Assembly: GCA_032718475.1 (NCBI GenBank)
Contig: JAUCBJ010001918.1
Location: forward strand, 1 to 50,784
Direction: 5' to 3'
Length of the DNA stretch: 50,784 nt
From: Nemertoderma westbladi
Lineage: Eukaryota; Animalia; Xenacoelomorpha
In this document: positions 225 through 46,700 of the stretch, in pieces
Position numbering within the stretch: position 1 is the stretch's first letter
Layout: every line of letters starts with the position of its first letter
The notes under the pieces: generated by a model
Databases searched by the model: none
Seen by the model: only the letters and a program-made list of their open reading frames with translations
Told to the model about the DNA's origin: nothing
Translations under genes and position numbers: made by a program

Positions 225-362
225 CTTGTCGGTCACCATGACGTCACTATAAGCGTGAACTTTGTATGCGCCTCTGATCTTCCGAACTCCGGGATATAAA
301 AGTTTAGCCATATTGATAAATGCGACTCCGTGGAATGTGTAACTGGTATCCTCCACTGACTC
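225..362 (-). CDS. CFAP70: Internal coding exon of CFAP70/TTC18 (ESVEDTSYTFHGVAFINMAKLLYPGVRKIRGAYKVHAYSDVMVTDK); gene continues off the left end
   Basis: Acceptor cttttccag| before 362, donor AAG|gttgga after 225; 138 nt, phase 0/0. Peptide resembles the vertebrate CFAP70 segment [29 protein letters not shown] (recalled, not searched). Confidence 0.85.
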
Positions 363-9875: not shown

Positions 9876-9936
9876 GAAATCTGAAAACTGAAATTGGTAA
9901 CCATGTACTGAAATAAGTAACTGGAGACTGAAATTG

Positions 9937-17856: not shown

Positions 17857-18259
17857 CGGCACAGTGTCAGTAGAAACCGCAAATCTCAAGGTACAGAGAA
17901 CGGTATAGACTAGTTTATGTTGACAACTAGATCCTGTGCGGCGGAGACAACCGGGTGGTTCTCATTATCCGTATCTCAACCGGGTGGTACCAACTGGTTC
18001 GTTATAGTCATTTATCTTGGATTCAACAAATTTATTAATATATTTTACTAATAATATATTCCGTCTCAAAAATATTTAAGTCTCAAAATATATTTATTTA
18101 TTTTTGACGTATCTTTGGATAATCGGGGTATTTATGTATTTGTGGATGAGATCAACATTAACGTTTGGTTGATGTGCTAAAATGCGAGCTTTTAGTTTTA
18201 TTCTTAAATTGTTAAATTTTGGACAGAAAATATCCCATAAATAATATATAAATAATAAC

Positions 18260-23061: not shown

Positions 23062-23108
23062 TATCTATATCCTCTACTTTGCGGCGGTTTTTCATAAACA
23101 TTCGATGG
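23058..23108 (-). CDS. Candidate 51-nt symmetric cassette exon (PSNVYEKPPQSRGYRYK) in the CFAP70 intron
   Basis: Acceptor ttgcctgcag|, donor TAAG|gtagtc coinciding with the start of the 43-bp array; open in phase 0. No homology support that I can recall. Confidence 0.35.
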
Positions 23109-23591
23109 CTGCAGGCAATCAATAGAATTAATATAATTAATATCAGCAAAATTTACAACAAAATAATAATAGAATAGATCAATGCTTGTAAATGTATTCC
23201 AATTGAAAGTTAACATTGTTGAATGATTATGCAGATCAGATACAGCATAGAGATCCTATAGATTGAGTTGATCGCTGATCGGTTGGTAGCATTTTATTAC
23301 TATTTATTGCAAAATAATGTAATAAATAGTAATAAAATTACTTTATTTGCTACCTTAACTTTATAGCGGCGACGACGTATTGTCGACTTGCTATAAAACA
23401 ATGCGAGCGCGATTCAAACAAACAGTGTCCAATAAATGCCTTAATCATAATGGGTAAAATAACTAGCTCCATAATATTCATGCCAAATATTATTATGATT
23501 ACAACAAATATTTTTGTAAGTTTTACGAAATTACAAGAACGTACTCGTACTCTGTAGTTATGAGATTTCCATCACCCACCTTTACCTTTCA

Positions 23592-26500
23592 GGCTATTTT
23601 CTGCTGTTTGTCCTTTGGAATTGCTTTTACTCACCTTTCACTTGGCTGCTTTCTGCTGTTTGTCCGTTGGAATTGCTTTGACTCACCTTCCCTCTCGGCT
23701 GCTTTCTGCTGTTTGTCCTTTAGAATTGCTTTGACTCACCTCCGCACTCGGCTGCTTTCTGCTGTTTGTCCGTTGGAATTGCTTTGACTCACCTTTCACT
23801 TGGCTGCTTTCTGCTGTTTGTCCGTTGGAATTACTTTTACTCAGCTTTCCCTTGGCTGCTTTCTGCTGTTTGTCCGTTGGAATTGCTTTGACTCACCTTC
23901 CCTTTCGGCTGCTTTCTGCTGTTTGTCCGTTGGAATTGCTTTGAATCACCTTCCCTTTCGGCTGCTTTCTGCTGTTTGTCCGTTGGAATTGCTTTGACTC
24001 ACCTTTCCCTTGGCTGCTTTCTGCTGTTTGTCCTTTGGAATTGCTTTGACTCACCTTCCCTCTCGTCTACTTTCTTCTGTTTGTCCGTTGGAATTGCTTT
24101 GACCCACCTTCCCTCTCGGCGGCTTTATGCTGTTTGTCCGTTGGAATTGCTTTGACTCACCTTCCCTCTCGTCTACTTTCTTCTGTTTGTCCGTTGGAAT
24201 TGCTTTGACCCACCTTCCCCTTGGCTGCTTTCTGCTGTTTGTCCGTTGGAATTGCTTTGACTCACCTTCCCTCTCGTCTACTTTCTTCTGTTTGTCCGTT
24301 GGAATTGCTTTGACCCACCTTCCCTCTCGGCGGCTTTATGCTGTTTGTCCGTTGGAATTGCTTTGTCTCACCTTCCCTCTCGGCTGCTTTCTGCTGTTTG
24401 TCCGTTGGAATTGCTTTGACTCACCTTCCCTCTCGGCTGCTTTCTGCTGTTTGTCCGTTGGAATTGCTTTTACTCACCTTCCCTCTCGGCTGCTTTCTGC
24501 TGTTTGTCCGTTGGAATTGCTTTGAATCACCTTCCCTTTCGGCTGCTTTCTGCTGTTTGTCCTTTGGAATTGCTTTGACTCACCTTCCCTCTCGTCTACT
24601 TTCTGCTGTTTGTTCGTTGGAATTGCTTTGACTCACCTTTCCCTTGGCTGCTTTCTGCTGTTTGTCCGTTGGAATTGCTTTGTCTCACCTTCCCTCTCGG
24701 CTGCTTTCTGCTGTTTGTCCGTTGGAATTGCTTTGACTCACCTTCCCTCTCGTCTACTTTCTGCTGTTTGTTCGTTGGAATTGCTTTGACTCACCTTTCC
24801 CTTGGCTGCTTTCTGCTGTTTGTCCGTTGGAATTGCTTTGACTCACCTTCCCTCTCGTCTACTTTCTGCTGTTTGTCCGTTGGAATTGCTTTGTCTCACC
24901 TTCCCTCTCGGCTGCTTTCTGCTGTTTGTCCGTTGGAATTGCTTTGACTCACCTTCCCTCTCGTCTACTTTCTGCTGTTTGTCCGTTGGAATTGCTTTGA
25001 CTCACCTTCCCTCTCGTCTACTTTCTGCTGTTTGTCCGTTGGAATTGCTTTGACCCACCTTCCCCTTGGCTGCTTTCTGCTGTTTGTCCGTTGGAATTGC
25101 TTTGACTCACCATCCCTCTCGGCTGCTTTCTGCTGTTTGTCCGTTGGAATTGCTTTGACTCACCTTCCCTCTCGGCTGCTTTCTGCTGTTTGTCCGTTGG
25201 AATTGCTTTTACTCACCTTCCCTCTCGGCTGCTTTCTGCTGTTTGTCCGTTGGAATTGCTTTGACTCGCCTTTCCACTTGCCCACTTTCTGCTGTTTGTC
25301 CTTTGGAATTGCTTTGACTCACCTTCCCTCTCGTCTACTTTCTGCTGTTTGTTCGTTGGAATTGCTTTGACTCACCTTTCCCTTGGCTGCTTTCTGCTGT
25401 TTGTCCGTTGGAATTGCTTTGACTCACCTTCCCTCTCGGCTGCTTTCTGCTGTTTGTCCGTTGGAATTGCTTTGACTCACCTTCCCTCTCGTCTACTTTC
25501 TGCTGTTTGTCCGTTGGAATTGCTTCGACTCACCTTCCCCTCGGCTACTTTCTGCTGTTTGTCCGTTGGAATTGCTTTGACTCACCTTCCCTCTCGTCTA
25601 CTTTCTGCTGTTTGTCCGTTGGAATTGCTTTGACTCAGCTTTTCCTTGGCTGCTTTCTGCTGTTTGTCCTTTGGAATTGCTTTGACGCACCTTCCCTCTC
25701 GTCTACTTTCTGCTGTTTGTTCGTTGGAATTGCTTTGACTCACCTTCCCTCTCGTCTACTTTCTGCTGTTTGTCCGTTGGAATTGCTTTGACTCACCTTT
25801 CCCTTGGCTGCTTTCTGTTGTTTGTCCGTTGGAATTGCTTTGACTCACCTTCCCCTAGGCGGCTTTGTCCGTTGGAATTGCTTTGACTCACCTTCCCTCT
25901 CGTCTACTTTCTGCTGTTTGTCCGTTGGAATTGCTTTGACTCACCTTCCCTCTCGTCTACTTTCTGCTGTTTGTCCGTTGGAATTGCTTTGACTCACCTT
26001 TCCCTTGGCTGCTTTCTGTTGTTTGTCCGTTGGAATTGCTTTGACTCACCTTCCCCTAGGCGGCTTTGTCCGTTGGAATTGCTTTGACTCACCTTCCCTC
26101 TCGTCTACTTTCTGCTGTTTGTCCGTTGGAATTGCTTTGACTCAGCTTTTCCTTGGCTGCTTTCTGCTGTTTGTCCTTTGGAATTGCTTTGACTCACCTT
26201 CCCTCTCGTCTACTTTCTGCTGTTTGTTCGTTGGAATTGCTTTGACTCACCTTCCCTCTCGTCTACTTTCTGCTGTTTGTCCGTTGGAATTGCTTTGACT
26301 CACCTTTCCCTTGGCTGCTTTCTGTTGTTTGTCCGTTGGAATTGCTTTGACTCACCTTCCCCTAGGCGGCTTTGTCCGTTGGAATTGCTTTGACTCACCT
26401 TCCCTCTCGTCTACTTTCTGCTGTTTGTCCGTTGGAATTGCCTACTTTCTGCTGTTTGTCCGTTGGAATTGCTTTGACTCACCTTCCCTTTCGGCTGCTT

Positions 26501-29500
26501 TCTGCTGTTTGTCCGTTGGAATTGCTTTGACTCAGCTTTTCCTTGGCTGCTTTCTGCTGTTTGTACGTTGGAATTGCTTTGACTCACCTTTCCCTTGGCT
26601 GCTTTCTGCTGTTTGTCCTTTGGAATTGCTTTGACTCACCTTCCCTCTCGTCTACTTTCTGCTGTTTGTCCCTTCCCTCTCGTCTACTTTCTGCTGTTTG
26701 TCCGTTGGAATTGCTTTGACTCACCTTTCCCTTGGCTGCTTTCTGTTGTTTGTCCGTTGGAATTGCTTTGACTCACCTTCCCCTAGGCGGCTTTGTCCGT
26801 TGGAATTGCTTTGACTCACCTTCCCTCTCGTCTACTTTCTGCTGTTTGTCCGTTGGAATTGCTTTGACTCAGCTTTTCCTTGGCTGCTTTCTGCTGTTTG
26901 TCCGTTGAAATTACTTTGACTCACCTTTCCCTTGGCTGCTTTCTGTTGTTTGTCCGTTGGAATTGTTTTGACTCACCTTCCCCTAGGCGGCTTTGTCCGT
27001 TGGAATTGCTTTGACTCACCTTTCCCTTGGTTGCTTTCTGCTGTTTGTCCGTTGGAATTGCTTTGACTCACCTTTCCCTTGGCTGCTTTCTGCTGTTTGT
27101 CCTTTAGAATTGCTTTGACTCACCTTCCCTCTCGTCTACTTTCAGATGTTTGTCCGTTGGAATTGCTTTGACTCACCTTCCCACTCGGCTGCTTTCTGCT
27201 GTTTGTCCGTTGGAATTGCTTTGATTCACCTTCCCTCTCGGCGGCTTTATGCTGTTTGTCCGTTGGAATTGCTTTGACTCACCTTCCCTCTCGGCTGCTT
27301 TCTGCTGTTTGTCCGTTGGAATTGCTTTGACTCGCCTTTCCACTTGCCCACTTTCTGCTGTTTGTCCGTTGGAATTGCTTTGACTCACCTTCCCTCTCGT
27401 CTACTTTCTTCTGTTTGTCCGTTGGAATTGCTTTGACCCACCTTCCCTCTCGGCGGCTTTATGCTGTTTGTCCGTTGGAATTGCTTTGACTCACCTTCCC
27501 TCTCGTCTACTTTCTTCTGTTTGTCCGTTGGAATTGCTTCGACTCACCTTCCCCTTGGCTGCTTTCTGCTGTTTGTCCATTGGAATTGCTTTGACTCACC
27601 TTCCCCTAGGCAGCTTTGTCCGTTGGAATTGCTTTGACTCACCTTCCCTCTCGTCTACTTTCTTCTGTTTGTCCGTTGGAATTGCTTTGACTCGCCTTTC
27701 CACTTGCCCACTTTCTGCTGTTTGTCCGTTGGAATTGCTTTGACTCACCTTCCCTCTCGTCTACTTTCTTCTGTTTGTCCGTTGGAATTGCTTTGACCCA
27801 CCTTCCCTCTCGGCGGCTTTATGCTGTTTGTCCGTTGGAATTGCTTTGACTCACCTTCCCTCTCGTCTACTTTCTTCTGTTTGTCCGTTGGAATTGCTTT
27901 GCCTCACCTTTCCTCTCGTCTACTTTCTGCTGTTTGTCCGTTGGAATTCCATTGACTCACCTTCCCCTAGGCAGCTTTGTCCGTAGGAATTGCTTTGACT
28001 CACCTTCCTTCTCGTCTACGTTCTGCTGTTTGTCCGTTGGAATTGCTTTGACTCACCTTTCCCTTGGCTGCTTTCTGCTGTTTGTCCGTTGGAATTGCTT
28101 TGACTCACCTTTCCTCTCGTCTACTTTCTGCTGTTTGTCCGTTGGAATTCCATTGACTCACCTTCCCCTAGGCAGCTTTGTCCGTTGGAATTGCTTTGAC
28201 TCACCTTTCCCTTGGCTGCTTTCTGTTGTTTGTCCGTTGGAATTGCTTTGACTCGCCTTTCCCTTGGCTGCTTTATGTTGTTTGTCCGTAGGAATTGCTT
28301 TGACTCACCTTTCCCTTGGCTGCTTTCTGTTGTTTGTCCGTAGGAATTGCTTTGACTCACCTTTCCCTTGGCTGCTTTCTGCTGTTTGTCCGTTGGAATT
28401 GCTTTGACTCACCTTCCCTCTCGGCTGCTTTATGCTGTTTGTCCGTTGGAATTGCTTTGACTCACCTTCCCACTCGGCTGCTTTCTGCTGTTTGTCCGTT
28501 GGAATTGCTTTGATTCACCTTCCCCTTGGTTGCTTTCTGCTGTTTGTCCTTTGGAATTGCTTTTACTCACCTTTCCCTTGGCTGCTTTCTGCTGTTTGTC
28601 CGTTGGAATTGCTTTGACTCACCTTCCCTCTCGGCTGCTTTATGCTGTTTGTCCGTTGGAATTGCTTTGACTCACCTTTCCCTTGGCTGCTTTCTGCTGT
28701 TTGTCCGTTGAAATTGCTTTTACTCACCTTTCACTTGGCTGCTTTCTGCTGTTTGTCCGTTGGAATTGCTTTGACTCACCTTCCCCCTCGGCTGCTTTCT
28801 GCTGTTTGTCCGTTGGAATTGCTTTGACTCACCTTCCCTCTCGGCGGCTTTATGCTGTTTGTCCGTTGGAATTGCTTTTACTCACCTTCCCCCTCGGCTG
28901 CTTTTTGCTGTTTGTCCTTTGGAATTGCTTTGACTCACCTTCCCACTCGGCTGCTTTCTGCTGTTTGTCCGTTGGAATTGCTTTGATTCACCTTCCCTCT
29001 CGGCGGCTTTATGCTGTTTGTCCGTTGGAATTGCTTTGACTCACCTTCCCTCTCGGCTGCTTTCTGCTGTTTGTCCGTTGGAATTGCTTTGACTCGCCTT
29101 TCCACTTGCCCACTTTCTGCTGTTTGTCCGTTGGAATTGCTTTGACCCACCTTCCCTCTCGGCGGCTTTATGCTGTTTGTCCGTTGGAATTGCTTTGACT
29201 CACCTTCCCTCTCGTCTACTTTCTTCTGTTTGTCCGTTGGAATTGCTTCGACTCACCTTCCCCTTGGCTGCTTTCTGCTGTTTGTCCATTGGAATTGCTT
29301 TGACTCACCTTCCCCTAGGCAGCTTTGTCCGTTGGAATTGCTTTGACTCACCTTTCCCTTGGCTGCTTTCTGCTGTTTGTCCGTTGGAATTGCTTTGACT
29401 CACCTTCCCCTAGGCAGCTTTGTCCGTTGGAATTGCTTTGACTCACCTTTCCCTTGGCTGCTTTCTGTTGTTTGTCCGTTGGAATTGCTTTGACTCGCCT

Positions 29501-32500
29501 TTCCCTTGGCTGCTTTCTGTTGTTTGTCCGTTGGAATTGCTTTGACTCACCTTTCCCTTGGCTGCTTTCTGTTGTTTGTCCGTTGGAATTGCTTTGACTC
29601 ACCTTTCCTCTCGTCTACTTTCTGCTGTTTGTCCGTTGGAATTCCATTGACTCACCTTCCCCTAGGCAGCTTTGTCCGTTGGAATTGCTTTGACTCACCT
29701 TTCCCTTGGCTGCTTTCTGTTGTTTGTCCGTTGGAATTGCTTTGACTCGCCTTTCCCTTGGCTGCTTTCTGTTGTTTGTCCGTTGGAATTGCTTTGACTC
29801 ACCTTTCCCTTGGCTGCTTTCTGTTGTTTGTCCGTTGGAATTGCTTTGACTCACCTTTCCTCTCGTCTACTTTCTGCTGTTTGTCCGTTGGAATTCCATT
29901 GACTCACCTTCCCCTAGGCAGCTTTGTCCGTTGGAATTGCTTTGACTCACCTTCCCCCTCGGCTGCTTTCTGCTGTTTGTCCTTTGGAATTGCTTTGACT
30001 CACCTTCCCACTCGGCTGCTTTCTGCTGTTTGTCCGTTGGAATTGCTTTGATTCACCTTCCCCCTCGGCTGCTTTCTGCTGTTTGTCCTTTGGAATTGCT
30101 TTGACTCACCTTCCCACTCGGCTGCTTTCTGCTGTTTGTCCGTTGGAATTGCTTTTACTCACCTCTCACTTGGCTGCTTTCTGCTGTTTGTCCGTTGGAA
30201 TTGCTTTGACTCACCTTCCCTCTCGGCTGCTTTCTGCTGTTTGTCCGTAGGAATTGCTTTGACTCACCTTCCCACTCGGCTGCTTTCTGCTGTTTGTCCG
30301 TTGGAATTGCTTTTACTCACCTCTCACTTGGCTGCTTTCTGCTGTTTGTCCGTTGGAATTGCTTTGACTCACCTTCCCTCTCGGCTGCTTTCTGCTGTTT
30401 GTCCGTTGGAATTGCTTTGGCCCACCTTCCCTCTCGGCTGCTTTCTGCTGTTTGTCCGTTGGAATTGCTTTGACTCACCTTCCCTCTCGGCTGCTTTCTG
30501 CTGTTTGTCCGTAGGAATTGCTTTGACTCACCTTTCCCTTGGCTGCTTTCTGCTGTTTGTCCGTAGGAATTGCTTTGACTCACCTTCCCCTTGGCTGCTT
30601 TCTGCTGTTTGTCCGTTGGAATTGCTTTGAATCACCTTCCCTTTCGGCTGCTTTCTGCTGTTTGTCCGTTGGAATTGCTTTGATTCACCTTCCCCTTGGC
30701 TGCTTTCTGCTGTTTGTCCGTAGGAATTGCTTTGACTCACCTTTCACTCGGCTGCTTTCTGCTGTTTGTCCGTTGGAATTGCTTTTACTCACCTCTCACT
30801 TGGCTGCTTTCTGCTGTTTGTCCGTTGGAATTGCTTTGACTCACCTTCCCTCTCGGCTGCTTTCTGCTGTTTGTCCGTTGGAATTGCTTTGGCCCACCTT
30901 CCCTCTCGGCTGCTTTCTGCTGTTTGTCCGTTGGAATTGCTTTGACTCACCTTCCCTCTCGGCTGCTTTCTGCTGTTTGTCCGTAGGAATTGCTTTGACT
31001 CACCTTTCCCTTGGCTGCTTTCTGCTGTTTGTCCGTAGGAATTGCTTTGACTCACCTTCTCCTTGGCTGCTTTCTGCTGTTTGTCCGTTGGAATTGCTTT
31101 GAATCACCTTCCCTTTCGGCTGCTTTCTGCTGTTTGTCCGTTGGAATTGCTTTGATTCACCTTCCCCTTGGCTGCTTTCTGCTGTTTGTCCGTAGGAATT
31201 GCTTTGACTCACCTTCCCCTTGGCTGCTTTCTGCTGTTTGTCCGTTGGAATTGCTTTGACTCACCATCCCTCTCGGCTGCTTTCTGCTGTTTGTCCGTTG
31301 GAATTGCTTTGACTCACCTTTCCACTTGCCCACTTTCTGCTGTTTGTCCGTTGGAATTGCTTTGAATCAACTTCCCTTTCGGCTGCTTTCTGCTGTTTGT
31401 CCGTTGGAATTGCTTTGACTCACCTTTACACTTGCCCACTTTCTGCTGTTTGTCCGTTGGAATTGCTTTGACTCACCTCCCCTCTCGTCTACTTTCTTCT
31501 GTTTGTCCGTTGGAATTGCTTCGACTCACCTTCCCCTCGGCTACTTTCTGCTGTTTGTCCGTTGGAATTGCTTTGACTCACCTTCCCTCTCGGCTGCTTT
31601 ATGCTGTTTGTCCGTTGGAATTGCTTTGACTCACCTTTCCACTTGCCCACTTTCTGCTGTTTGTCCGTTGGAATTGCTTTGACTCACCTTCCCTCTCGGC
31701 TGCTTTATGCTGTTTGTCCGTTGGAATTGCTTTGACTCACCTTTCCACTTGCCCACTTTCTGCTGTTTGTCCGTTGGAATTGCTTTGACTCACCTTCCCT
31801 CTCGGCTGCTTTATGCTGTTTGTCCGTTGGAATTGCTTTGACTCACCTTTCCACTTGCCCACTTTCTGTTGTTTGTCCGTAGGAATTGCTTTGACTCACC
31901 TTTCCCTTGGCTGCTTTCTGCTGTTTGTCCGTTGGAATTGCTTTGACTCACCTTCCCTCTCGTCTACTTTCTTCTGTTTGTCCGTTGGAATTGCTTTGAC
32001 TCACCTCCCCTCTCGTCTACTTTCTTCTGTTTGTCCGTTGGAATTGCTTCGACTCACCTTCCCCTCGGCTACTTTCTGCTGTTTGTCCGTTGGAATTGCT
32101 TTGACTCAGCTTTTCCTTGGCTGCTTTCTGCTGTTTGTCCGTTGGAATTGCTTTGACTCACCTTTCCCTTGGCTGCTTTCTGCTGTTTGTCCATTGGAAT
32201 TGCTTTGACTCACCTTCCCCTAGGCGGCTTTGTCCGTTGGAATTGCTTTGACTCACCTTTCCCTTGGCTGATTTCTGCTGTTTGTCCGTTGGAATTGCTT
32301 TGACTCACCTTTCCCTTGGCTGCTTTCTGCTGTTTGTCCGTTGGAATTCCTTTGACTCACCTTTCCCTTGGCTGCTTTCTGTTGTTTGTCCGTAGGAATT
32401 GCTTTGACTCACCTTTCCCTTGGCTGCTTTCTGTTGTTTGTCCGTAGGAATTGCTTTGACTCGCCTTTCCCTTGGCTGCTTTCTGTTGTTTGTCCGTAGG

Positions 32501-35500
32501 AATTGCTTTGACTCACCTTCCTTCTCGTCTACGTTCTGTTGTTTGTCCGTAGGAATTGCTTTGACTCGCCTTTCCCTTGGCTGCTTTCTGTTGTTTGTCC
32601 GTAGGAATTGCTTTGACTCACCTTCCTTCTCGTCTACGTTCTGTTGTTTGTCCGTTGGAATTGCTTTTACTCACCTTTCCCTTGGCTGCTTTCTGTTGTT
32701 TGTCCGTAGGAATTGCTTTGACTCACCTTCCTTCTCGTCTACGTTCTGTTGTTTGTCCGTTGGAATTGCTTTGATTCACCTTTCACTTGGCTGCTTTCTG
32801 TTGTTTGTCCGTTGGAATTGCTTTGACTCACCTTCCCCTTGGCTGCTTTCTGCTGTTTGTCCGTTGGAATTGCTTTGACTCACCTTTCCACTTGGCTGCT
32901 TTCTGTTGTTTGTCCGTTGGAATTGCTTTTACTCACCTTTCCCTTGGCTGCTTTCTGTTGTTTGTCCGTAGGAATTGCTTTGACTCACCTTTCCCTTGGC
33001 TGCTTTCTGTTGTTTGTCCGTAGGAATTGCTTTGACTCACCTTTCCCTTGGCTGCTTTCTGCTGTTTGTCCGTAGGAATTGCTTTGACTCACCTTCCCCT
33101 TGGCTGCTTTCTGCTGTTTGTCCGTTGGAATTGCTTTGACTCACCTTTCCACTTGGCTGCTTTCTGCTGTTTGTCCGTTGGAATTGCTTTGACTCACCTT
33201 TCCCTTGGCTGCTTTCTGTTGTTTGTCCGTAGGAATTGCTTTGACTCACCTTTCCCTTGGCTGCTTTCTGCTGTTTGTCCGTAGGAATTGCTTTGACTCA
33301 CCTTCCCCTTGGCTGCTTTCTGCTGTTTGTCCGTTGGAATTGCTTTGACTCACCTTCCCACTCGGCTGCTTTCTGTTGTTTGTCCGTTGGAATTGCTTTG
33401 ACTCACCTTCCTTCTCGTCTACGTTCTGTTGTTTGTCCGTAGGAATTGCTTTGACTCGCCTTTCCCTTGGCTGCTTTCTGTTGTTTGTCCGTAGGAATTG
33501 CTTTGACTCACCTTCCTTCTCGTCTACGTTCTGTTGTTTGTCCGTTGGAATTGCTTTTACTCACCTTTCCCTTGGCTGCTTTCTGTTGTTTGTCCGTAGG
33601 AATTGCTTTGACTCACCTTTCCCTTGGCTGCTTTCTGTTGTTTGTCCGTAGGAATTGCTTTGACTCACCTTTCCCTTGGCTGCTTTCTGCTGTTTGTCCG
33701 TAGGAATTGCTTTGACTCACCTTCCCCTTGGCTGCTTTCTGCTGTTTGTCCGTTGGAATTGCTTTGACTCACCTTTCCACTTGGCTGCTTTCTGCTGTTT
33801 GTCCGTTGGAATTGCTTTGACTCACCTTTCCCTTGGCTGCTTTCTGTTGTTTGTCCGTAGGAATTGCTTTGACTCACCTTCCTTCTCGTCTACGTTCTGC
33901 TGTTTGTCCGTTGGAATTGCTTTGACTCACCTTTCCCTTGGCTGCTTTCTGTTGTTTGTCCGTAGGAATTGCTTTGACTCACCTTTCCCTTGGCTGCTTT
34001 CTGTTGTTTGTCCGTAGGAATTGCTTTGACTCACCTTTCCCTTGGCTGCTTTCTGCTGTTTGTCCGTAGGAATTGCTTTGACTCACCTTTCCCTTGGCTG
34101 CTTTCTGCTGTTTGTCCGTTGGAATTGCTTTGACTCACCTTCCCACTCGGCTGCTTTCTGCTGTTTGTCCGTTGGAATTGCTTTGACTCACCTTCCCACT
34201 CGGCTGCTTTCTGCTGTTTGTCCGTAGGAATTGCTTTGACTCACCTTCCTTCTCGTCTACGTTCTGCTGTTTGTCCGTTGGAATTGCTTTGACTCACCTT
34301 TCCCTTGGCTGCTTTCTGCTGTTTGTCCGTTGGAATTGCTTTGACTCACCTTCCCACTCGGCTGCTTTCTGCTGTTTGTCCGTAGGAATTGCTTTGACTC
34401 ACCTTTCCCTTGGCTGCTTTCTGCTGTTTGTCCGTTGGAATTGCTTTGACTCACCTTCCCACTCGGCTGCTTTCTGCTGTTTGTCCGTTGGAATTGCTTT
34501 GACTCACCTTTCCCTTGGCTGCTTTCTGTTGTTTGTCCGTAGGAATTGCTTTGACTCACCTTTCCCTTGGCTGCTTTCTGCTGTTTGTCCGTAGGAATTG
34601 CTTTGACTCACCTTTCCCTTGGCTGCTTTCTGCTGTTTGTCCGTAGGAATTGCTTTGACTCACCTTTCCCTTGGCTGCTTTCTGCTGTTTGTCCGTTGGA
34701 ATTGCTTTGACTCACCTTCCCACTCGGCTGCTTTCTGCTGTTTGTCCGTTGGAATTGCTTTGACTCACCTTCCCTCTCGGCTGCTTTCTGCTGTTTGTCC
34801 GTAGGAATTGCTTTGACTCACCTTCCCACTCGGCTGCTTTCTGCTGTTTGTCCGTTGGAATTGCTTTTACTCACCTCTCACTTGGCTGCTTTCTGCTGTT
34901 TGTCCGTTGGAATTGCTTTGACTCACCTTCCCTCTCGGCTGCTTTCTGCTGTTTGTCCGTTGGAATTGCTTTGGCCCACCTTCCCTCTCGGCTGCTTTCT
35001 GCTGTTTGTCCGTTGGAATTGCTTTGACTCACCTTCCCTCTCGGCTGCTTTCTGCTGTTTGTCCGTAGGAATTGCTTTGACTCACCTTTCCCTTGGCTGC
35101 TTTCTGCTGTTTGTCCGTAGGAATTGCTTTGACTCACCTTCCCCTTGGCTGCTTTCTGCTGTTTGTCCGTTGGAATTGCTTTGAATCACCTTCCCTTTCG
35201 GCTGCTTTCTGCTGTTTGTCCGTTGGAATTGCTTTGATTCACCTTCCCCTTGGCTGCTTTCTGCTGTTTGTCCGTAGGAATTGCTTTGACTCACCTTTCA
35301 CTCGGCTGCTTTCTGCTGTTTGTCCGTTGGAATTGCTTTTACTCACCTCTCACTTGGCTGCTTTCTGCTGTTTGTCCGTTGGAATTGCTTTGACTCACCT
35401 TCCCTCTCGGCTGCTTTCTGCTGTTTGTCCGTTGGAATTGCTTTGGCCCACCTTCCCTCTCGGCTGCTTTCTGCTGTTTGTCCGTTGGAATTGCTTTGAC

Positions 35501-38500
35501 TCACCTTCCCTCTCGGCTGCTTTCTGCTGTTTGTCCGTAGGAATTGCTTTGACTCACCTTTCCCTTGGCTGCTTTCTGCTGTTTGTCCGTAGGAATTGCT
35601 TTGACTCACCTTCTCCTTGGCTGCTTTCTGCTGTTTGTCCGTTGGAATTGCTTTGAATCACCTTCCCTTTCGGCTGCTTTCTGCTGTTTGTCCGTTGGAA
35701 TTGCTTTGATTCACCTTCCCCTTGGCTGCTTTCTGCTGTTTGTCCGTAGGAATTGCTTTGACTCACCTTCCCCTTGGCTGCTTTCTGCTGTTTGTCCGTT
35801 GGAATTGCTTTGACTCACCATCCCTCTCGGCTGCTTTCTGCTGTTTGTCCGTTGGAATTGCTTTGACTCACCTTTCCACTTGCCCACTTTCTGCTGTTTG
35901 TCCGTTGGAATTGCTTTGAATCAACTTCCCTTTCGGCTGCTTTCTGCTGTTTGTCCGTTGGAATTGCTTTGACTCACCTTTACACTTGCCCACTTTCTGC
36001 TGTTTGTCCGTTGGAATTGCTTTGACTCACCTCCCCTCTCGTCTACTTTCTTCTGTTTGTCCGTTGGAATTGCTTCGACTCACCTTCCCCTCGGCTACTT
36101 TCTGCTGTTTGTCCGTTGGAATTGCTTTGACTCACCTTCCCTCTCGGCTGCTTTATGCTGTTTGTCCGTTGGAATTGCTTTGACTCACCTTTCCACTTGC
36201 CCACTTTCTGCTGTTTGTCCGTTGGAATTGCTTTGACTCACCTTCCCTCTCGGCTGCTTTATGCTGTTTGTCCGTTGGAATTGCTTTGACTCACCTTTCC
36301 ACTTGCCCACTTTCTGCTGTTTGTCCGTTGGAATTGCTTTGACTCACCTTCCCTCTCGGCTGCTTTATGCTGTTTGTCCGTTGGAATTGCTTTGACTCAC
36401 CTTTCCACTTGCCCACTTTCTGTTGTTTGTCCGTAGGAATTGCTTTGACTCACCTTTCCCTTGGCTGCTTTCTGCTGTTTGTCCGTTGGAATTGCTTTGA
36501 CTCACCTTCCCTCTCGTCTACTTTCTTCTGTTTGTCCGTTGGAATTGCTTTGACTCACCTCCCCTCTCGTCTACTTTCTTCTGTTTGTCCGTTGGAATTG
36601 CTTCGACTCACCTTCCCCTCGGCTACTTTCTGCTGTTTGTCCGTTGGAATTGCTTTGACTCAGCTTTTCCTTGGCTGCTTTCTGCTGTTTGTCCGTTGGA
36701 ATTGCTTTGACTCACCTTTCCCTTGGCTGCTTTCTGCTGTTTGTCCATTGGAATTGCTTTGACTCACCTTCCCCTAGGCGGCTTTGTCCGTTGGAATTGC
36801 TTTGACTCACCTTTCCCTTGGCTGATTTCTGCTGTTTGTCCGTTGGAATTGCTTTGACTCACCTTTCCCTTGGCTGCTTTCTGCTGTTTGTCCGTTGGAA
36901 TTCCTTTGACTCACCTTTCCCTTGGCTGCTTTCTGTTGTTTGTCCGTAGGAATTGCTTTGACTCACCTTTCCCTTGGCTGCTTTCTGTTGTTTGTCCGTA
37001 GGAATTGCTTTGACTCGCCTTTCCCTTGGCTGCTTTCTGTTGTTTGTCCGTAGGAATTGCTTTGACTCACCTTCCTTCTCGTCTACGTTCTGTTGTTTGT
37101 CCGTAGGAATTGCTTTGACTCGCCTTTCCCTTGGCTGCTTTCTGTTGTTTGTCCGTAGGAATTGCTTTGACTCACCTTCCTTCTCGTCTACGTTCTGTTG
37201 TTTGTCCGTTGGAATTGCTTTTACTCACCTTTCCCTTGGCTGCTTTCTGTTGTTTGTCCGTAGGAATTGCTTTGACTCACCTTCCTTCTCGTCTACGTTC
37301 TGTTGTTTGTCCGTTGGAATTGCTTTGATTCACCTTTCACTTGGCTGCTTTCTGTTGTTTGTCCGTTGGAATTGCTTTGACTCACCTTCCCCTTGGCTGC
37401 TTTCTGCTGTTTGTCCGTTGGAATTGCTTTGACTCACCTTTCCACTTGGCTGCTTTCTGTTGTTTGTCCGTTGGAATTGCTTTTACTCACCTTTCCCTTG
37501 GCTGCTTTCTGTTGTTTGTCCGTAGGAATTGCTTTGACTCACCTTTCCCTTGGCTGCTTTCTGTTGTTTGTCCGTAGGAATTGCTTTGACTCACCTTTCC
37601 CTTGGCTGCTTTCTGCTGTTTGTCCGTAGGAATTGCTTTGACTCACCTTCCCCTTGGCTGCTTTCTGCTGTTTGTCCGTTGGAATTGCTTTGACTCACCT
37701 TTCCACTTGGCTGCTTTCTGCTGTTTGTCCGTTGGAATTGCTTTGACTCACCTTTCCCTTGGCTGCTTTCTGTTGTTTGTCCGTAGGAATTGCTTTGACT
37801 CACCTTTCCCTTGGCTGCTTTCTGCTGTTTGTCCGTAGGAATTGCTTTGACTCACCTTCCCCTTGGCTGCTTTCTGCTGTTTGTCCGTTGGAATTGCTTT
37901 GACTCACCTTCCCACTCGGCTGCTTTCTGTTGTTTGTCCGTTGGAATTGCTTTGACTCACCTTCCTTCTCGTCTACGTTCTGTTGTTTGTCCGTAGGAAT
38001 TGCTTTGACTCGCCTTTCCCTTGGCTGCTTTCTGTTGTTTGTCCGTAGGAATTGCTTTGACTCACCTTCCTTCTCGTCTACGTTCTGTTGTTTGTCCGTT
38101 GGAATTGCTTTTACTCACCTTTCCCTTGGCTGCTTTCTGTTGTTTGTCCGTAGGAATTGCTTTGACTCACCTTTCCCTTGGCTGCTTTCTGTTGTTTGTC
38201 CGTAGGAATTGCTTTGACTCACCTTTCCCTTGGCTGCTTTCTGCTGTTTGTCCGTAGGAATTGCTTTGACTCACCTTCCCCTTGGCTGCTTTCTGCTGTT
38301 TGTCCGTTGGAATTGCTTTGACTCACCTTTCCACTTGGCTGCTTTCTGCTGTTTGTCCGTTGGAATTGCTTTGACTCACCTTTCCCTTGGCTGCTTTCTG
38401 TTGTTTGTCCGTAGGAATTGCTTTGACTCACCTTCCTTCTCGTCTACGTTCTGCTGTTTGTCCGTTGGAATTGCTTTGACTCACCTTTCCCTTGGCTGCT

Positions 38501-39728
38501 TTCTGTTGTTTGTCCGTAGGAATTGCTTTGACTCACCTTTCCCTTGGCTGCTTTCTGTTGTTTGTCCGTAGGAATTGCTTTGACTCACCTTTCCCTTGGC
38601 TGCTTTCTGCTGTTTGTCCGTAGGAATTGCTTTGACTCACCTTTCCCTTGGCTGCTTTCTGCTGTTTGTCCGTTGGAATTGCTTTGACTCACCTTCCCAC
38701 TCGGCTGCTTTCTGCTGTTTGTCCGTTGGAATTGCTTTGACTCACCTTCCCACTCGGCTGCTTTCTGCTGTTTGTCCGTAGGAATTGCTTTGACTCACCT
38801 TCCTTCTCGTCTACGTTCTGCTGTTTGTCCGTTGGAATTGCTTTGACTCACCTTTCCCTTGGCTGCTTTCTGCTGTTTGTCCGTTGGAATTGCTTTGACT
38901 CACCTTCCCACTCGGCTGCTTTCTGCTGTTTGTCCGTAGGAATTGCTTTGACTCACCTTTCCCTTGGCTGCTTTCTGCTGTTTGTCCGTTGGAATTGCTT
39001 TGACTCACCTTCCCACTCGGCTGCTTTCTGCTGTTTGTCCGTTGGAATTGCTTTGACTCACCTTTCCCTTGGCTGCTTTCTGTTGTTTGTCCGTAGGAAT
39101 TGCTTTGACTCACCTTTCCCTTGGCTGCTTTCTGCTGTTTGTCCGTAGGAATTGCTTTGACTCACCTTTCCCTTGGCTGCTTTCTGCTGTTTGTCCGTAG
39201 GAATTGCTTTGACTCACCTTTCCCTTGGCTGCTTTCTGCTGTTTGTCCGTTGGAATTGCTTTGACTCACCTTCCCACTCGGCTGCTTTCTGCTGTTTGTC
39301 CGTTGGAATTGCTTTGACTCACCTTCCCCTTGGCTGCTTTCTGCTGTTTGTCCGTTGGAATTGCTTTGACTCACCTTCCCACTCGGCTGCTTTCTGCTGT
39401 TTGTCCGTTGGAATTGCTTTGACTCACCTTTCCCTTGGCTGCTTTCTGTTGTTTGTCCGTAGGAATTGCTTTGACTCACCTTTCCCTTGGCTGCTTTCTG
39501 TTGTTTGTCCGTAGGAATTGCTTTGACTCACCTTTCCCTTGGCTGCTTTCTGCTGTTTGTCCGTAGGAATTGCTTTGACTCACCTTCCCCTTGGCTGCTT
39601 TCTGCTGTTTGTCCGTTGGAATTGCTTTGACTCACCTTTCCCTTGGCTGCTTTCTGCTGTTTGTCCGTTGGAATTGCTTTGACTCACCTTTCCCTTGGCT
39701 GCTTTCTGTTGTTTGTCCGTAGGAATTG
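23592..39728. repeat. 52/53-bp satellite array of about 16.1 kb (about 310 units), derived from the CFAP70 exon end plus its 5' splice site
   Basis: Minus-strand unit caattccaacggacaaacagcagaaagcagccaagggaaag|gtgagtcaaag; the terminal unit is the last 41 nt of exon 39688-39781. Confidence 0.98.
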
Positions 39729-39781
39729 TTCTCATTACTTCAACCGGCCAGTACCGAGTCGACGCTATCTTTGATTGTAAC
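39688..39781 (-). CDS. CFAP70: CFAP70 internal exon ((K)LQSKIASTRYWPVEVMRTIPTDKQQKAAKGK)
   Basis: Acceptor tttattag|G, donor AAG|gtgagt; 94 nt, phase 2 to 0; only this frame is open. Resembles recalled CFAP70 FQKRIADCRLWPVEITR. Confidence 0.85.
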
Positions 39782-40127
39782 CTAATAAACAATAATAATC
39801 CCGCCTGATTACAACATATTCCCAACTCTACTATATTTAACGCCATGAATCAAGAAATATATAAATTAATGATGAGCTACGGGTTTAATATTTCACTGAG
39901 TGAAATATATTAGATAGAGTATTCCTACCGTATTTTTATATAATATTTTAAGTGGCTGCTTACAAAGTTTATTATATTGCCAACATACCGGAAGACAGGC
40001 CAATATCCGTTATCAGATAAATTATTCTGTGAAAAAGCAACCTCAGTGTCATTCTTATAAGATATCAGGGAAATAAATAGATCCCTTAATAATTGATAAT
40101 TTGTTATAATTAAGTAGATAAACTAAC

Positions 40128-40277
40128 TTTTGCGCCAAATTTGGTTCAACGAAATGACAGCGTTCCATGTTCCACACAACGCGGTTCTTATTCTGTTCGG
40201 CATCGGAACGCATATCGTGGTCGTCTTTGGAACGGAGTTCCCCACACTCATCCTCGTAGTGTGTTTGTGGTAAACAA
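40128..40277 (-). CDS. CFAP70: CFAP70 internal exon (CLPQTHYEDECGELRSKDDHDMRSDAEQNKNRVVWNMERCHFVEPNLAQ)
   Basis: Acceptor gtgttccag|T, donor AA|gttagt; 150 nt, phase 2/2, joins the next exon in frame. Resembles recalled CFAP70 YEEEEGELNHPEDSEFRNQAE...RIIWDLESRCYLDP. Confidence 0.85.
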
Positions 40278-40781
40278 CTGGAACACAAATAATAAACAAC
40301 TAGAACACAAACAATAAACAACTGGGACACAAACAATAAACAACTGGAACACAAACAATAAACAACTGGGACACAAACAATAAACAACTGGAACACAAAC
40401 AATAAGCGACTGGAAAACAAACAATAAACAACTGGAACACAAACAATATACAACTGAAACACAAACAACTGGAACACAAATAATAAACAACTGGAACACA
40501 AACAATAAACAACTGGAACACAAACAATATACAACTGAAACACAAACAACTGGAACACAAATAATAAACAACTGGAACACAAACAATAAACAATTGGAAC
40601 ACAAACAATAAACAACTGGAACACAAACAATAAACAACTGAAACACAAACACAAACAATAAACAACTGGAACACAAACAATAAACAACTGGAACACAAAC
40701 AATAATCAACTGGAACACTAATAATAAACAACTGCAACACAAACAATAAACAACTGGAACACTAACAATAATCAACTAGAA
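40271..40781. repeat. 22-bp tandem array (about 23 units) derived from the CFAP70 3' splice site
   Basis: Minus-strand unit ttgtttgtgttccag|ttgttta; the last copy is the real acceptor plus the first 7 exon nucleotides. Confidence 0.95.
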
Positions 40782-43700
40782 CTCTGTCCAATTGAATTAA
40801 CAACGTGTGTCCAACTTACCTGTCAGTTATATAAGAACTCTGTCCAACTGAATTAACAACGTGTGTCCAAATTACCGGTCAGTTATATAAGAACTCTGCC
40901 CAACTGAATTAACAACGTGTGTCCATATTACGGGTCAGTTATATAAGAACTCTGTCCAACTGAATTAACAACGTGTGTCCAAATTACCGGTCAGTTATAT
41001 AAGAACTCTGCCCAACTGAATTAACAACGTGTGTCTAACTTACCTGTCAGTTATATAAGAACTCTGACCAACTGAATTAACAACGTGTGTCTAACTTACC
41101 TGTCAGTTATATAAGAACTCTGCCCAACTGAATTAATAACTTGTGTCCAACTTACCTGTCAGTTATATAAGAACTATAAGAACTCTGCCCAACTGAATTA
41201 ACAACGTGTGTCTAACTTACCTGTCAGTTATATAAGAACTCTGCCCAACTGAATTAATAACTTGTGTCCAACTTACCGGTCAGTTATATAAGAACTCTGC
41301 CCAACTGAATTAACAACGTGTGTCCAAATTACCGGTCAGTTATATAAGAACTCTGCCCAACTGAATTAACAACGTGTGTCCAACTTACCGGTCAGTTATA
41401 TAAGAACTCTGCCCAACTGAATTAATAACTTGTGTCCAACTTACCTGTCAGTTATATAAGAACTCTGTCCAACTGAATTAACAACGTGTGTCCAAATTAC
41501 CGGTCAGTTATATAAGAACTCTGCCCAACTGAATTAACAACGTGTGTCCAACTTACCGGTCAGTTATATAAGAACTCTGCCCAACTGAATTAATAACTTG
41601 TGTCCAACTTACCTGTCAGTTATATAAGAACTCTGTCCAACTGAATTAACAACGTGTGTCCAAATTACCGGTCAGTTATATAAGAACTCTGCCCAACTGA
41701 ATTAACAACGTGTGTCTAACTTACCTGTCAGTTATATAAGAACTCTGCCCAACTGAATTAATAACTTGTGTCCAACTTACCTGTCAGTTATATAAGAACT
41801 CTGTCCAACTGAATTAACAACGTGTGTCCAAATTACCGGTCAGTTATATAAGAACTCTGCCCAACTGAATTAACAACGTGTGTCCAACTTACCTGTCAGT
41901 TATATAAGAACTCTGTCCAACTGAATTAACAACGTGTGTCCAACTTACCTGTTAGTTATATAAGAACTCTGTCCAACTGAATTAACAACGTGTGTCCAAC
42001 TTACCGGTCAGTTATATAAGAACTCTGCCCAACTGAATTAACAACGTGTGTCTAACTTACCTGTCAGTTATATAAGAACTCTGCCCAACTGAATTAATAA
42101 CTTGTGTCCAACTTACCGGTCAGTTATATAAGAACTCTGCCCAACTGAATTAATAACTTGTGTCCAACTTACCGGTCAGTTATATAAGAACTCTGCCCAA
42201 CTGAATTAACAACGTGTGTCCAACTTACGGGTCAGTTATAAGAACTCTGCCCAACTGAATTAACAACGTGTGTCTAACTTACCTGTCAGTTATATAAGAA
42301 CTCTGCCCAACTGAATTAATAACTTGTGTCCAACTTACCGGTCAGTTATATAAGAACTCTGTCCAACTGAATTAACAACTTGTGTTCAACTTACCTGTCA
42401 GTTATATAAGAACTCTGCCCAACTGAATTAACAACGTGTGTCTAACTTACCTGTCAGTTATATAAGAACTCTGCCCAACTGAATTAATAACTTGTGTCAA
42501 ACTTACCGGTCAGTTATATAAGAACTCTGTCCAACTGAATTAACAACTTGTGTTCAACTTACCTGTCAGTTATATAAGAACTCTGTCCAACTGAATTAAC
42601 AACGTGTGTCCAACTTACCGGTCAGTTATATAAGAACTCTGTCCAACTGAATTAACAACGTGTGTCCAACTTACCGGTCAGTTGAATAAGAACTCTGCCC
42701 AACTGAATTAATAACTTGTGTCCAACTTACCGGTCAGTTATATAAGAACTCTGCCCAACTGAATTAATAACTTGTGTCCAACTTACCGGTCAGTTATATA
42801 AGAACTCTGCCCAACTGAATTAACAACGTGTGTCCAACTTACGGGTCAGTTATAAGAACTCTGCCCAACTGAATTAACAACGTGTGTCTAACTTACCTGT
42901 CAGTTATATAAGAACTCTGCCCAACTGAATTAATAACTTGTGTCCAACTTACCGGTCAGTTATATAAGAACTCTGTCCAACTGAATTAACAACTTGTGTT
43001 CAACTTACCTGTCAGTTATATAAGAACTCTGCCCAACTGAATTAACAACGTGTGTCTAACTTACCTGTCAGTTATATAAGAACTCTGCCCAACTGAATTA
43101 ATAACTTGTGTCAAACTTACCGGTCAGTTATATAAGAACTCTGTCCAACTGAATTAACAACTTGTGTTCAACTTACCTGTCAGTTATATAAGAACTCTGT
43201 CCAACTGAATTAACAACGTGTGTCCAACTTACCGGTCAGTTATATAAGAACTCTGTCCAACTGAATTAACAACGTGTGTCCAACTTACCGGTCAGTTGAA
43301 TAAGAACTACGTCCAACTGAATTAACAGCGTATGTCCAACTTACCTGTCAGTTATATAAGAACTCTGTCCAACTGAATTAATAACTTGTGTTCAACTTAC
43401 CTGTCAGTTATATAAGAACTCTGTCCAACTGAATTAACAACGTGTGTCCAACTTACGGGTCAGTTATATAAGAACTCTGCCGAACTGAATTAACAACGTG
43501 TGTCTAACTTACCTGTCAGTTATATAAGAACTCTGCCCAACTGAATTAATAACTTGTGTCAAACTTACCGGTCAGTTATATAAGAACTCTGTCCAACTGA
43601 ATTAACAACTTGTGTTCAACTTACCTGTCAGTTATATAAGAACTCTGTCCAACTGAATTAACAACGTGTGTCCAACTTACCGGTCAGTTATATAAGAACT

Positions 43701-46700
43701 CTGTCCAACTGAATTAACAACGTGTGTCCAACTTACCGGTCAGTTGAATAAGAACTCCGTCCAACTGAATTAACAGCGTATGTCCAACTTACCTGTCAGT
43801 TATATAAGAACTCTGTCCAACTGAATTAACAACTTGTGTCCAACTTACCTGTCAGTTATATAAGAACTCTGCCCAACTGAATTAACAACTTGTGTCCAAC
43901 TTACCGGTCAGTTATATAACCAACTGAATTAACAACGTGTGTCCAACTTACCTGTCATTTATATAAGAACTCTGTCCAACTGAATTAACAACGTGTGTCC
44001 AACTTAACTGTCAGTTATAAAAGAATTCTGCCCAACTGAATTAACAAGGTGTGTCCAACTTACCTGTCAGTTATATAAGAACTCTGCCCAACTGAATTAA
44101 CAACGTGTGTCCAACTTACCTGTCAGTTATATAAGAACTCTGCCCAACTGAATTAACAACGTGTGTCCAACTTACCGGTCAGTTATATAAGAACTCTGTC
44201 CAACTTAATTAACAACGTGTGTCCAACTTACCGGTCAGTTAAATAAGAACTCTGCCCAACTTATTTAACAACGTGTGTCCAACTTACCTGTCAGTTATAT
44301 AAGAACCTTGTCCAACTGTATTAACAACGTGTGTTCAAATTACCGGTCAGTTATATAAGAACTCTGCCCAACTGAATTAACAACGTGTGTTCAACTTACG
44401 GGTCAGTTATATAAGAACTCTGCCCAACTGAATTAACAACGTGTGTCTAACTTACCTGTCAGTTATATAAGAACTCTGCCCAACTGAATTAATAACTTGT
44501 GTCCAACTTACCGGTCAGTTATATAAGAACTCTGTCCAACTGAATTAACAACTTGTGTTCAACTTACCTGTCAGTTATATAAGAACTCTGTCCAACTGAA
44601 TTAACAACGTGTGTCCAACTTACCGGTCAGTTATATAAGAACTCTGTCCAACTGAATTAACAACGTGTGTCCAACTTTCCGGTCAGTTAAATAAGAACTC
44701 CGTCCAACTGAATTAACAGCGTATGTCCAACTTACCTGTCAGTTATATAAGAACTCTGTCCAACTGAATTAACAACTTGTGTCCAACTTACCTGTCAGTT
44801 ATATAAGAACTCTGCCCAACTGAATTAACAACTTGTGTCCAACTTACCGTTCAGTTATATAACCAACTGAATTAACAACGTGTGTCCAACTTACCTGTCA
44901 TTTATATAAGAACTCTGTCCAACTGAATTAAAAACGTGTGTCCAACTTAACCGTCAGTTATAAAATAATTCTGCCCAACTGAATTAACAAGGTGTGTCCA
45001 ACTTACCTGTCAGTTATATAAGAACTCTGCCCAACTGAATTAACAACGTGTTTCCAACTTACGTGTCAGTTATATAAGAACTCTGCCCAACTGAATTAAC
45101 AACGTGTGTCCAAATTACCGGTCAGTTATATAAGAACTCTGCCCAACTGAATTAACAACGTGTGTCCAACTTACCGGTCAGTTATATAAGAACTCTGCCC
45201 AACTGAATTAATAACTTGTGTCCAACTTACCTGTCAGTTATATAAGAACTCTGTCCAACTGAATTAACAACGTGTGTCCAAATTACCGCTTAGTTATATA
45301 AGAACTCTGCCCAACTGAATTAACAACGTGTGTCTAACTTACCTGTCAGTTATATAAGAACTCTGCCCAACTGAATTAACAAGGTGTGTCTAACTTACCT
45401 GTCAGTTATATAAGAACCCTGCCCAACTGAATTAATAACTTGTGTCAAACTTACCGGTCAGTTATATAAGAACTCTGTCCAACTGAATTAACAACTTGTG
45501 TTCAACTTACCTGTCAGTTATATAAGAACTCTGTCCAACTGAATTAACAACGTGTGTCCAACTTACCGGTCAGTTATATAAGAACTCTGTCCAACTGAAT
45601 TAACAACGTGTGTCCAACTTACCGGTCAGTTGAATAAGAACTCCGTCCAACTGAATTAACAGCGTATGTCCAACTTACCTGTCAGTTATATAAGAACTCT
45701 GTCCAACTGAATTAATAACTTGTGTTCAACTTACCTGTCAGTTATATAAGAACTCTGTCCAACTGAATTAACAACGTGTGTCCAACTTACGGGTCAGTTA
45801 TATAAGAACTCTGCCCAACTGAATTAACAACGTGTGTCTAACTTACCTGTCAGTTATATAAGAACTCTGCCCAACTGAATTTATAACTTGTGTCAAACTT
45901 ACCGGTCAGTTATATAAGAACTCTGTCCAACTGAATTAACAACTTGTGTTCAACTTACCTGTCAGTTATATAAGAACTCTGTCCAACTGAATTAACAACG
46001 TGTGTCCAACTTACCGGTCAGTTATATAAGAACTCTGTCCAACTGAATTAACAACGTGTGTCCAACTTACCGGTCAGTTGAATAAGAACTCCGTCCAACT
46101 GAATTAACAGCGTATGTCCAACTTACCTGTCAGTTATATAAGAACTCTGTCCAACTGAATTAACAACTTGTGTCCAACTTACCTGTCAGTTATATAAGAA
46201 CTCTGCCCAACTGAATTAACAACTTGTGTCCAACTTACCGGTCAGTTATATAACCAACTGAATTAACAACGTGTGTCCAACTTACCTGTCATTTATATAA
46301 GAACTCTGTCCAACTGAATTAACAACGTGTGTCCAACTTAACTGTCAGTTATAAAAGAATTCTGCCCAACTGAATTAACAAGGTGTGTCCAACTTACCTG
46401 TCAGTTATATAAGAACTCTGCCCAACTGAATTAACAACGTGTGTCCAACTTACCTGTCAGTTATATAAGAACTCTGCCCAACTGAATTAACAACGTGTGT
46501 CCAACTTACCGGTCAGTTATATAAGAACTCTGTCCAACTTAATTAACAACGTGTGTCCAACTTACCGGTCAGTTAAATAAGAACTCTGCCCAACTTATTT
46601 AACAACGTGTGTCCAACTTACCTGTCAGTTATATAAGAACCTTGTCCAACTGTATTAACAACGTGTGTTCAAATTACCGGTCAGTTATATAAGAACTCTG

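Follow-up and report, generated by a model that had tools for sequence, protein, structure and literature searches.

A very large, probably neutral mirage-type repeat in CFAP70 of Nemertoderma westbladi: some 310 copies of an exon end and its 5' splice site, with assembled RNA spliced at the first

Minisatellites that span an exon-intron border, and therefore reiterate a splice site, are known from several human genes. The sections of the F7 study drawn on here (Borensztajn et al. 2006, PMC1557585) give 5 to 9 copies for F7, 25 pseudo-sites for IFI6 (6-16), 15 to 20 for CBS, 10 to 15 for LMNB2, and 16 to 18 for PDGF; 6-16 and CBS are said there also to use the two nearest pseudo-sites, and 50 constructs of the F7 repeat are reported to show 5'-to-3' oriented scanning. 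Comparable clusters in amphioxus have been termed "mirages." As described in the cited parts of PMC3087553, these are tandem duplications of either exon-intron border, found in Adh3 and in the globin genes BflGb6 and BflGb9, which keep regular splicing and evolve in concert within the cluster while the edges are excluded from homogenization. Here we analyze a 50,784-nt stretch of the genome of the xenacoelomorph Nemertoderma westbladi (assembly GCA_032718475.1, contig JAUCBJ010001918.1, positions 1 to 50,784; hereafter the window), in which a 52-nt piece made up of the end of a coding exon of CFAP70 and the adjoining 5' splice site is repeated 310 times into the following intron. The array is very probably an outsized intronic repeat of the mirage type, spliced in assembled RNA at its first site and likely neutral.

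An earlier note on this DNA, made from the letters alone, had described a 16-kb array of about 310 copies whose unit joins the final 41 nt of the exon to the opening 11 nt of the intron, the first unit being protein coding. Two approaches agree with that description. Tandem Repeats Finder returned a period of 53 (also 105) with 309.5 copies, 89% matches, and 3% indels, and a segmentation in which units were delimited by anchoring on the conserved unit start of the minus strand gave 310 head-to-tail units of 52/53 nt. The 309 spacings between unit starts are 53 nt (151 cases), 52 nt (142), 43 nt (14), 85 nt (1), and 31 nt (1). On the minus strand the unit reads AATTCC..GGAAAG/GTGAGTCAAAGC (a slash between letters or positions marks a splice border throughout); the first one begins at 39728 or 39727, with an exon part of 41 or 40 nt and an intron part of 11 or 12 nt, the one-base phase being arbitrary. 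There are 83 distinct unit sequences, and 20 units, the exon copy included, match the exon copy exactly. The distal-most unit, at about 23622, is degenerate, consistent with the degenerate far end previously placed at about 23590.

The donor 9-mer is AAG/GTGAGT in 241 of the 310 units, GAG/GTGAGT in 10, and ATG/GTGAGT in 3, i.e., the GTGAGT core is intact in 254; the other 56 have a changed core, for example GCGAGT (13), GTGAAT (10), CTGAGT (7), or GTGGGT (7). Purines make up 70.7% of the array's gene strand, whose longest pyrimidine run measures 5 nt (none of 6 or more). Since the units contain no pyrimidine tract, the copies are donors without acceptors, as the purine-rich composition had already been taken to mean. 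A recursive-splicing (ratchet) site was considered and rejected for the same reason, the motif AAAG/GTGAGT being present but not the tract.

In its layout the array resembles the 37-bp variable-number tandem repeat of F7 intron 7, which, in the account cited above, likewise has a border-spanning first unit and identical pseudo-donors, the most upstream of which is used. It differs from it in copy number (310 versus 5 to 9), in the share of exon within the unit (41 nt, against 4 nt in F7, where the intron supplies the other 33), and in donor strength, the weak UGG/gugggu of F7 contrasting with the full-consensus AAG/GTGAGT of CFAP70.

Donor choice can be read from a spliced contig assembled from run X4 (2,624 nt, depth 121.6), which crosses three exons, here called A, B, and C (Table 1), with no other letter across its pieces. 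Letters 862 to 1018 lie on 40280-40124, after which 346 nt bounded by GT..AG on the gene strand (CT..AC on the plus strand, cut +4) are skipped; letters 1019 to 1109 lie on 39777-39687 and letters 1107 to 1246 on 364-225. The 30-letter loose end past 39687 equals exon C from 361. The contig thus joins exon B at 39688 to the exon at 362, so that the donor used is the first copy, AAG/GTGAGT at 39688/39687, the one that the earlier note had named as the true site. Its acceptor partner, exon C, lies 39.3 kb downstream. Run X4 is labeled "DNA?"; we infer that the contig derives from RNA because it is spliced; a processed retrocopy would show an identical join. No X4 contig lies on the repeat units at 39560-39686, on the intron between exons A and B, or on the acceptor unit at 40285-40300, which is a gap in cover and no evidence against the use of pseudo-sites.

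Computation also upheld what had been claimed about the reading frame. Donor 2 would add 52 nt and donor 3 would add 104 nt, either of which shifts the frame, and splicing from donor 4 onward, like read-through, runs into a TGA at 39582-39580; the first donor alone keeps the CFAP70 frame. IFI6 intron 2, CBS intron 13, LMNB2, and PDGF intron 4 are alike in that their donor recurs within the intron, 10 to 25 times according to the cited portions of PMC1557585. IFI6 and CBS differ in using the nearest pseudo-sites, whereas the CFAP70 contigs show no such use (rare use is compatible with them), and the CFAP70 copies are ten times more numerous.

The gene was identified as CFAP70, a cilia gene, in agreement with the earlier note, and sequence comparison confirmed the assignment through matches of exons A and C to PDB 9ijj_k and through an orthologue alignment. 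Exon B encodes ..LQSKIASTRYWPVEVMRTIPTDKQQKAAKGK, its last 41 nt forming the first repeat unit. Searched alone against PDB (an 89-aa frame), exon B gave no CFAP70 match, the query being too short and of low complexity, and its identity follows from the alignment of the spliced exons. All eight CFAP70 proteins chosen for comparison (seven named mollusc proteins and one unnamed) aligned over the full length of the computed A+B+C translation, at 43 to 54% identity and with E values of 1e-29 to 1e-37.

Two other arrays in CFAP70 also contain splice junctions. The 22-nt unit consists of the exon A acceptor plus the first 7 nt of exon A, TTGTTTGTGTTCCAG/TTGTTTA; CAG/TTG is retained in 20 of its 24 copies, and the X4 contig splices at the last of them, 40278/40277. 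In the adjacent 56-nt array, CAG/GTAAGT is exact in 83 units and GTAAGT is present in 153. The 30 letters that precede exon A in the X4 contig are an exact stretch of the 56-nt unit, found in 68 units. Because the mRNA contig thus holds at least 30 nt of that unit directly before exon A, the unit reproduces the end of the preceding exon together with its donor. As far as the window shows, the intron upstream of exon A consists entirely of a donor array and, after it, an acceptor array, which suggests that the ancestral intron was so short that no small duplication could avoid taking in a border. The amphioxus mirages, to judge from the cited parts of PMC3087553, are similar in having border copies on the donor or the acceptor side and regular splicing. 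They differ in having few units (3 to 6 in BflGb6), against 310, at least 178, and 24 in this one gene, and in that CFAP70 has an intron composed, as the window shows it, of donor and acceptor arrays only.

The junction unit could, conversely, have been captured by the exon from a preexisting satellite, one unit being exonized as the exon's 3' end. The protein gives this idea one point, TIPTDKQQ being a 4-residue insertion relative to 7 of the 8 aligned orthologues, but the exon tail that follows it speaks otherwise: ..AAKGK aligns with the conserved ..AAAKGKK/..SGKGKK of the orthologues, and exon C follows in phase 0 as in the protein alignment. Furthermore, the two other CFAP70 arrays copy junctions too, which fits junction duplication and not three separate captures. 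Capture is therefore extremely improbable. The position of the exon tail on a conserved orthologue motif indicates instead that the exon end is ancestral and that the array was copied from the exon.

The units' differences from the exon copy were set against position along the array. The mean number of differences is 3.75 at 39676-34726 (95 units), 3.87 at 34725-30172 (87 units), and 6.65 in the far zone, 30171-23598 (127 units). In ten-unit bins it is about 2 to 4 near the exon, about 6 in a patch at 36.6-35.5 kb, and 5.5 to 10.8 in most distal bins. Divergence thus rises with distance from the exon (Spearman rho 0.40, 309 units), with a gradient that is present but not smooth; when one copy of a duplicated block (see below) was dropped, rho was 0.43 (222 units), a value reached by 0 of 221 circular shifts. 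The exon-type T (CCT), which had been reported to begin at about 27983 and to be enriched near the exon, occurs in 73 of 308 units in an alignment that excluded two units of odd length; its most distal unit starts at 27991, so that it is confined to the 11.7 kb nearest the exon.

The suggestion of polar growth stands only in part. Similarity to the exon does fall with distance, but the array is organized as two zones with patchy blocks, a map of unit types being blockwise, and it contains a tandem duplication of 4,554 bp: 30172-34774 matches 34726-39328 without a mismatch over 4,603 positions. Such a perfect duplication arose either by unequal exchange in the very recent past or through misassembly. 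With regard to possible length instability between alleles or individuals, it points to recent unequal exchange, the contigs of other samples being too short to size the array.

The same identity, unusual where other units differ, is what favors the possibility that most of the array's length was produced by the assembler, which would have inflated a much shorter minisatellite. We consider this highly unlikely. Outside the duplicated block, the 222 units comprise 83 distinct sequences in nonperiodic order. In three DNA runs (X1 to X3, from at least two samples; X1 is the probable source run, and X2 and X3 belong to another sample and study), the summed depth of unit words is hundreds of times that of the single-copy flank: 18,275 versus 27, 7,557 versus 25, and 1,097 versus 5. 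Summed word depth is not copy number and only hints at a long array in the other samples. Both flanks of the array are also present in the independent sample. Contigs from X2 and X3 cover 39699-40300 with two differences, both in the intron, and hold the border between exon B and the array, and in one X3 contig the distal flank continues into a repeat unit, 29 of 30 letters being as at 23569-23598. No difference is listed within exon B in the X2 and X3 contigs, which say little on polymorphism.

A further reading of the variants, that the common ones are synonymous in the exon frame, was correct for those it named and was selective. CCT/CCA, CAA/CAG, and GGA/GGG, at unit positions 7, 19, and 37, are real and common. 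Equally common are variants at two second codon positions (unit position 27, with 72 minor units, and unit position 30, with 66) and at one first codon position (unit position 32, with 153), and an insertion of 1 nt is present in 151 units. Restricting the exon part to sites where the minor allele reaches 10 units or more leaves 13, of which 7 are third positions (binomial P = 0.10). The array copies show no sign of coding constraint. The exon copy itself differs from its nearest array relatives solely at the three silent sites named above, which fits a selected edge copy as far as three sites can show.

Taken together, the observations are best accounted for by the following course of events. 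A single small tandem duplication across the exon-intron border would have started the array, harmless as long as the outer site was chosen, and unequal exchange would then have enlarged it, as the perfect 4,554-bp duplication and the blockwise unit-type map indicate. The whole array is removed with the 39.3-kb intron. If the scanning and exon-definition rule of the human F7 repeat can be transferred to CFAP70, the splicing machinery would take the most upstream donor beside a defined exon, and some 250 intact downstream donors are predicted to be silent. Folding of the array RNA showed no special structure that would mask the later donors (z = 0.32; 120 of 200 shuffles equal or better). A slip to a later donor would cause a frameshift or reach the TGA and would probably lead to nonsense-mediated decay. 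The exon copy would be held by selection on the protein, and this would account for the exon-like near zone and for degeneracy being limited to the far edge.

The array may instead be a working device, in which the donors hold U1 snRNP on the nascent RNA and so save a 39-kb intron, with the polyadenylation site of EPRS inside it, from premature truncation, or in which CFAP70 is tuned through unproductive splicing and decay. The numbers lend this some appeal: GTGAGT is intact in 254 of 310 units, the neighboring intron has 83 perfect CAG/GTAAGT sites, EPRS lies within the intron on the same strand as CFAP70, and there are three junction arrays in one gene. Yet the donor positions are no better conserved than other quiet positions of the unit, with 56 of 310 cores mutated; the far zone decays; the 3' end of EPRS is reached only more than 19 kb downstream of the array; and similar repeats in F7 and the amphioxus globins are described, in the cited parts of PMC1557585 and PMC3087553, as not disturbing splicing. 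U1 binding at this locus would itself be a supposition from sequence. A device of this kind is very improbable, and the array more likely came about as a harmless side product than as a means of control.

Several considerations weigh against a neutral mirage-type array spliced at its first site. The RNA evidence consists of one assembled contig from one run, labeled "DNA?". Contigs drop rare isoforms, so that low-level use of donor 2 or 3 is possible, as in human IFI6 and CBS (according to the cited sections of PMC1557585). The 4.55-kb duplication may be an assembly error, in which case the copy number is off by about 87 units. Neutrality, the removal of slips by nonsense-mediated decay, and oriented scanning are inferences as far as this organism is concerned. 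Finally, three junction-spanning arrays in one gene are more than random placement of arrays would lead one to expect, and a junction-specific mechanism or function is possible.

With these reservations, the CFAP70 array has the defining features of the mirage/F7-type class: it is head to tail, its edge unit spans a real exon-intron border, and the outermost site is used. It is extreme in scale. Against the range given for published minisatellite cases in the portions of the literature cited here (units of 10 to 160 bp, 3 to 25 copies), the 52/53-bp unit falls within bounds, and the 310 copies and 16 kb far exceed them, a difference in size and not in kind. A search of the literature found no junction-spanning array with hundreds of copies, which is no proof that none is in print. 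The class is already known; within it CFAP70 stands out by scale (ten-fold more copies), by having three such arrays, and by an intron built from copies of its borders.

Two other known phenomena bear a resemblance. The Y-linked axonemal dynein genes kl-3 and kl-5 of Drosophila are also cilia/flagella genes with satellite-swollen introns, but those introns, as described in the cited part of PMC6508621, are of megabase size and consist of simple satellites that do not come from the genes' own junctions. Gigantism of the Drosophila type, in which introns of hundreds of kilobases to megabases go with a testis-specific program, was rejected for CFAP70 because the intron measures 39.3 kb. In the Rogers model of intron gain by AG/GT tandem duplication, as outlined in the cited part of PMC2891723, the duplication also carries a splice signal and the duplicate is also spliced out. 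There a new intron arises within an exon, whereas in CFAP70 an existing junction has been multiplied within an existing intron.

Table 1. Coordinates of the features of the window (nt, plus-strand numbering).
Feature	Position	Strand	Evidence
CFAP70 exon C, 138 nt	225..362	-	PDB 9ijj_k residues 332-386, E 5e-10; X4 contig
SLD5/GINS4, in CFAP70 intron	2475-3143	+	Pfam
EPRS (fused Glu/Pro-tRNA synthetase), in CFAP70 intron	4149-11723	- (as CFAP70)	Pfam
60-nt array in EPRS intron, 30 copies, 97% matches	8070-9876		
40-nt array in EPRS intron	9932-10063		
TRMT1, in CFAP70 intron	about 15871-17856	+	Pfam
43-nt satellite in CFAP70 intron, 108 copies, 88% matches	18260-23061		
Unique distal flank of the junction-derived array	23062..23597	.	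X3 contig (independent sample) joins flank to repeat unit
Junction-derived tandem array, 16.1 kb	23598..39728	-	Tandem Repeats Finder and own segmentation
Two tandem copies of a 4,554-bp block, about 87 units	30172..39328	-	Self-comparison, unit-type map
CFAP70 exon B, 94 nt	39688..39781	-	X4 contig (39777-39687), both sides joined; mollusc CFAP70 alignment
Intron A-B, 346 nt, GT..AG, without array	39782..40127	-	X4 contig joint
CFAP70 exon A, 150 nt	40128..40277	-	PDB 9ijj chain k residues 253-291, E 2e-4; X4 contig
22-nt array, 24 copies of the exon A acceptor	40271..40782	-	Repeat finding and X4 contig
56-nt array, at least 178 units, runs off the window	40778..50784	-	Repeat finding and X4 contig loose end at 40280

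The intron that opens with the array (363-39687, minus strand) contains three other genes and several further repeats (Table 1). CFAP70 transcription must pass through the 3' end of EPRS. For SLD5, a search for near relatives gave 39% identity at best. The 60-nt and 40-nt arrays in the EPRS intron were ruled out as junction derived, as they start about 350 nt past the donor; they are ordinary intronic minisatellites. Long G runs are also found in the EPRS intron on the minus strand, at 7650-7690 and 10395-10425: one directly follows the donor (GTGAGTGGGGAGGGGGGCGGG), and another precedes, by about 50 to 80 nt, the point (7606) at which the reading frame of the following coding block opens. Between EPRS and TRMT1, at 14620-15037, a 22-nt repeat (8 copies) and a 25-nt repeat share the core CCATAAATTAATTTTTGGTCGA in opposite orientation. 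Within the TRMT1 open frame a 36-nt repeat (17124-17279, 4.2 copies) encodes a repeated ..PVDGTPP.ATQR.., and a 21-nt repeat (17811-17874) lies right at the end of the frame. On the minus strand the 43-nt satellite shows a weak donor-like motif, ..CTCTAAG/GTAGTC..; an exon origin was looked for in this array (18260-23061), and no link to a known exon was found. The segment 857-2247 is a very-high-copy dispersed repeat, with summed contig depths of 10^4 to 10^5 in the DNA runs against about 20 to 30 for the flanks; it is abundant in X4 too, and includes a 292/147-nt tandem duplication (1342-1949) and an (ACG)19 run (2071-2128). A search of the window against Rfam gave zero families at the gathering score.

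A bolder possibility, which we regard as rather unlikely, is that splice junctions are hot spots of satellite birth in this lineage. The CFAP70 introns, once tens of bases long, would be swelling to tens of kilobases as their own donors and acceptors are amplified. The selected exon copy would act as a master edge that repeatedly seeds the near zone, and the gene would function only through a strict outermost-site rule that the spliceosome upholds against hundreds of perfect competitors. If so, the locus would put splice-site choice to a natural stress test and would capture intron gigantism of a flagellar gene at an early stage.

The human repeats used to study splice-site choice among identical competitors have 5 to 25 copies, according to the cited sections of PMC1557585. 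In CFAP70 of N. westbladi, 254 full-consensus donors are spread over 16 kb of a single gene, joined by at least 83 perfect CAG/GTAAGT sites in the previous intron and by 20 intact acceptor copies, and the assembled mRNA uses the outermost site in both cases that can be checked within the window. For genome annotation the locus serves as a warning, as gene predictors may choose any of hundreds of equal donors. It would permit an extreme test of the oriented-scanning and exon-definition models, and it indicates that short introns can grow to many kilobases out of their own borders.

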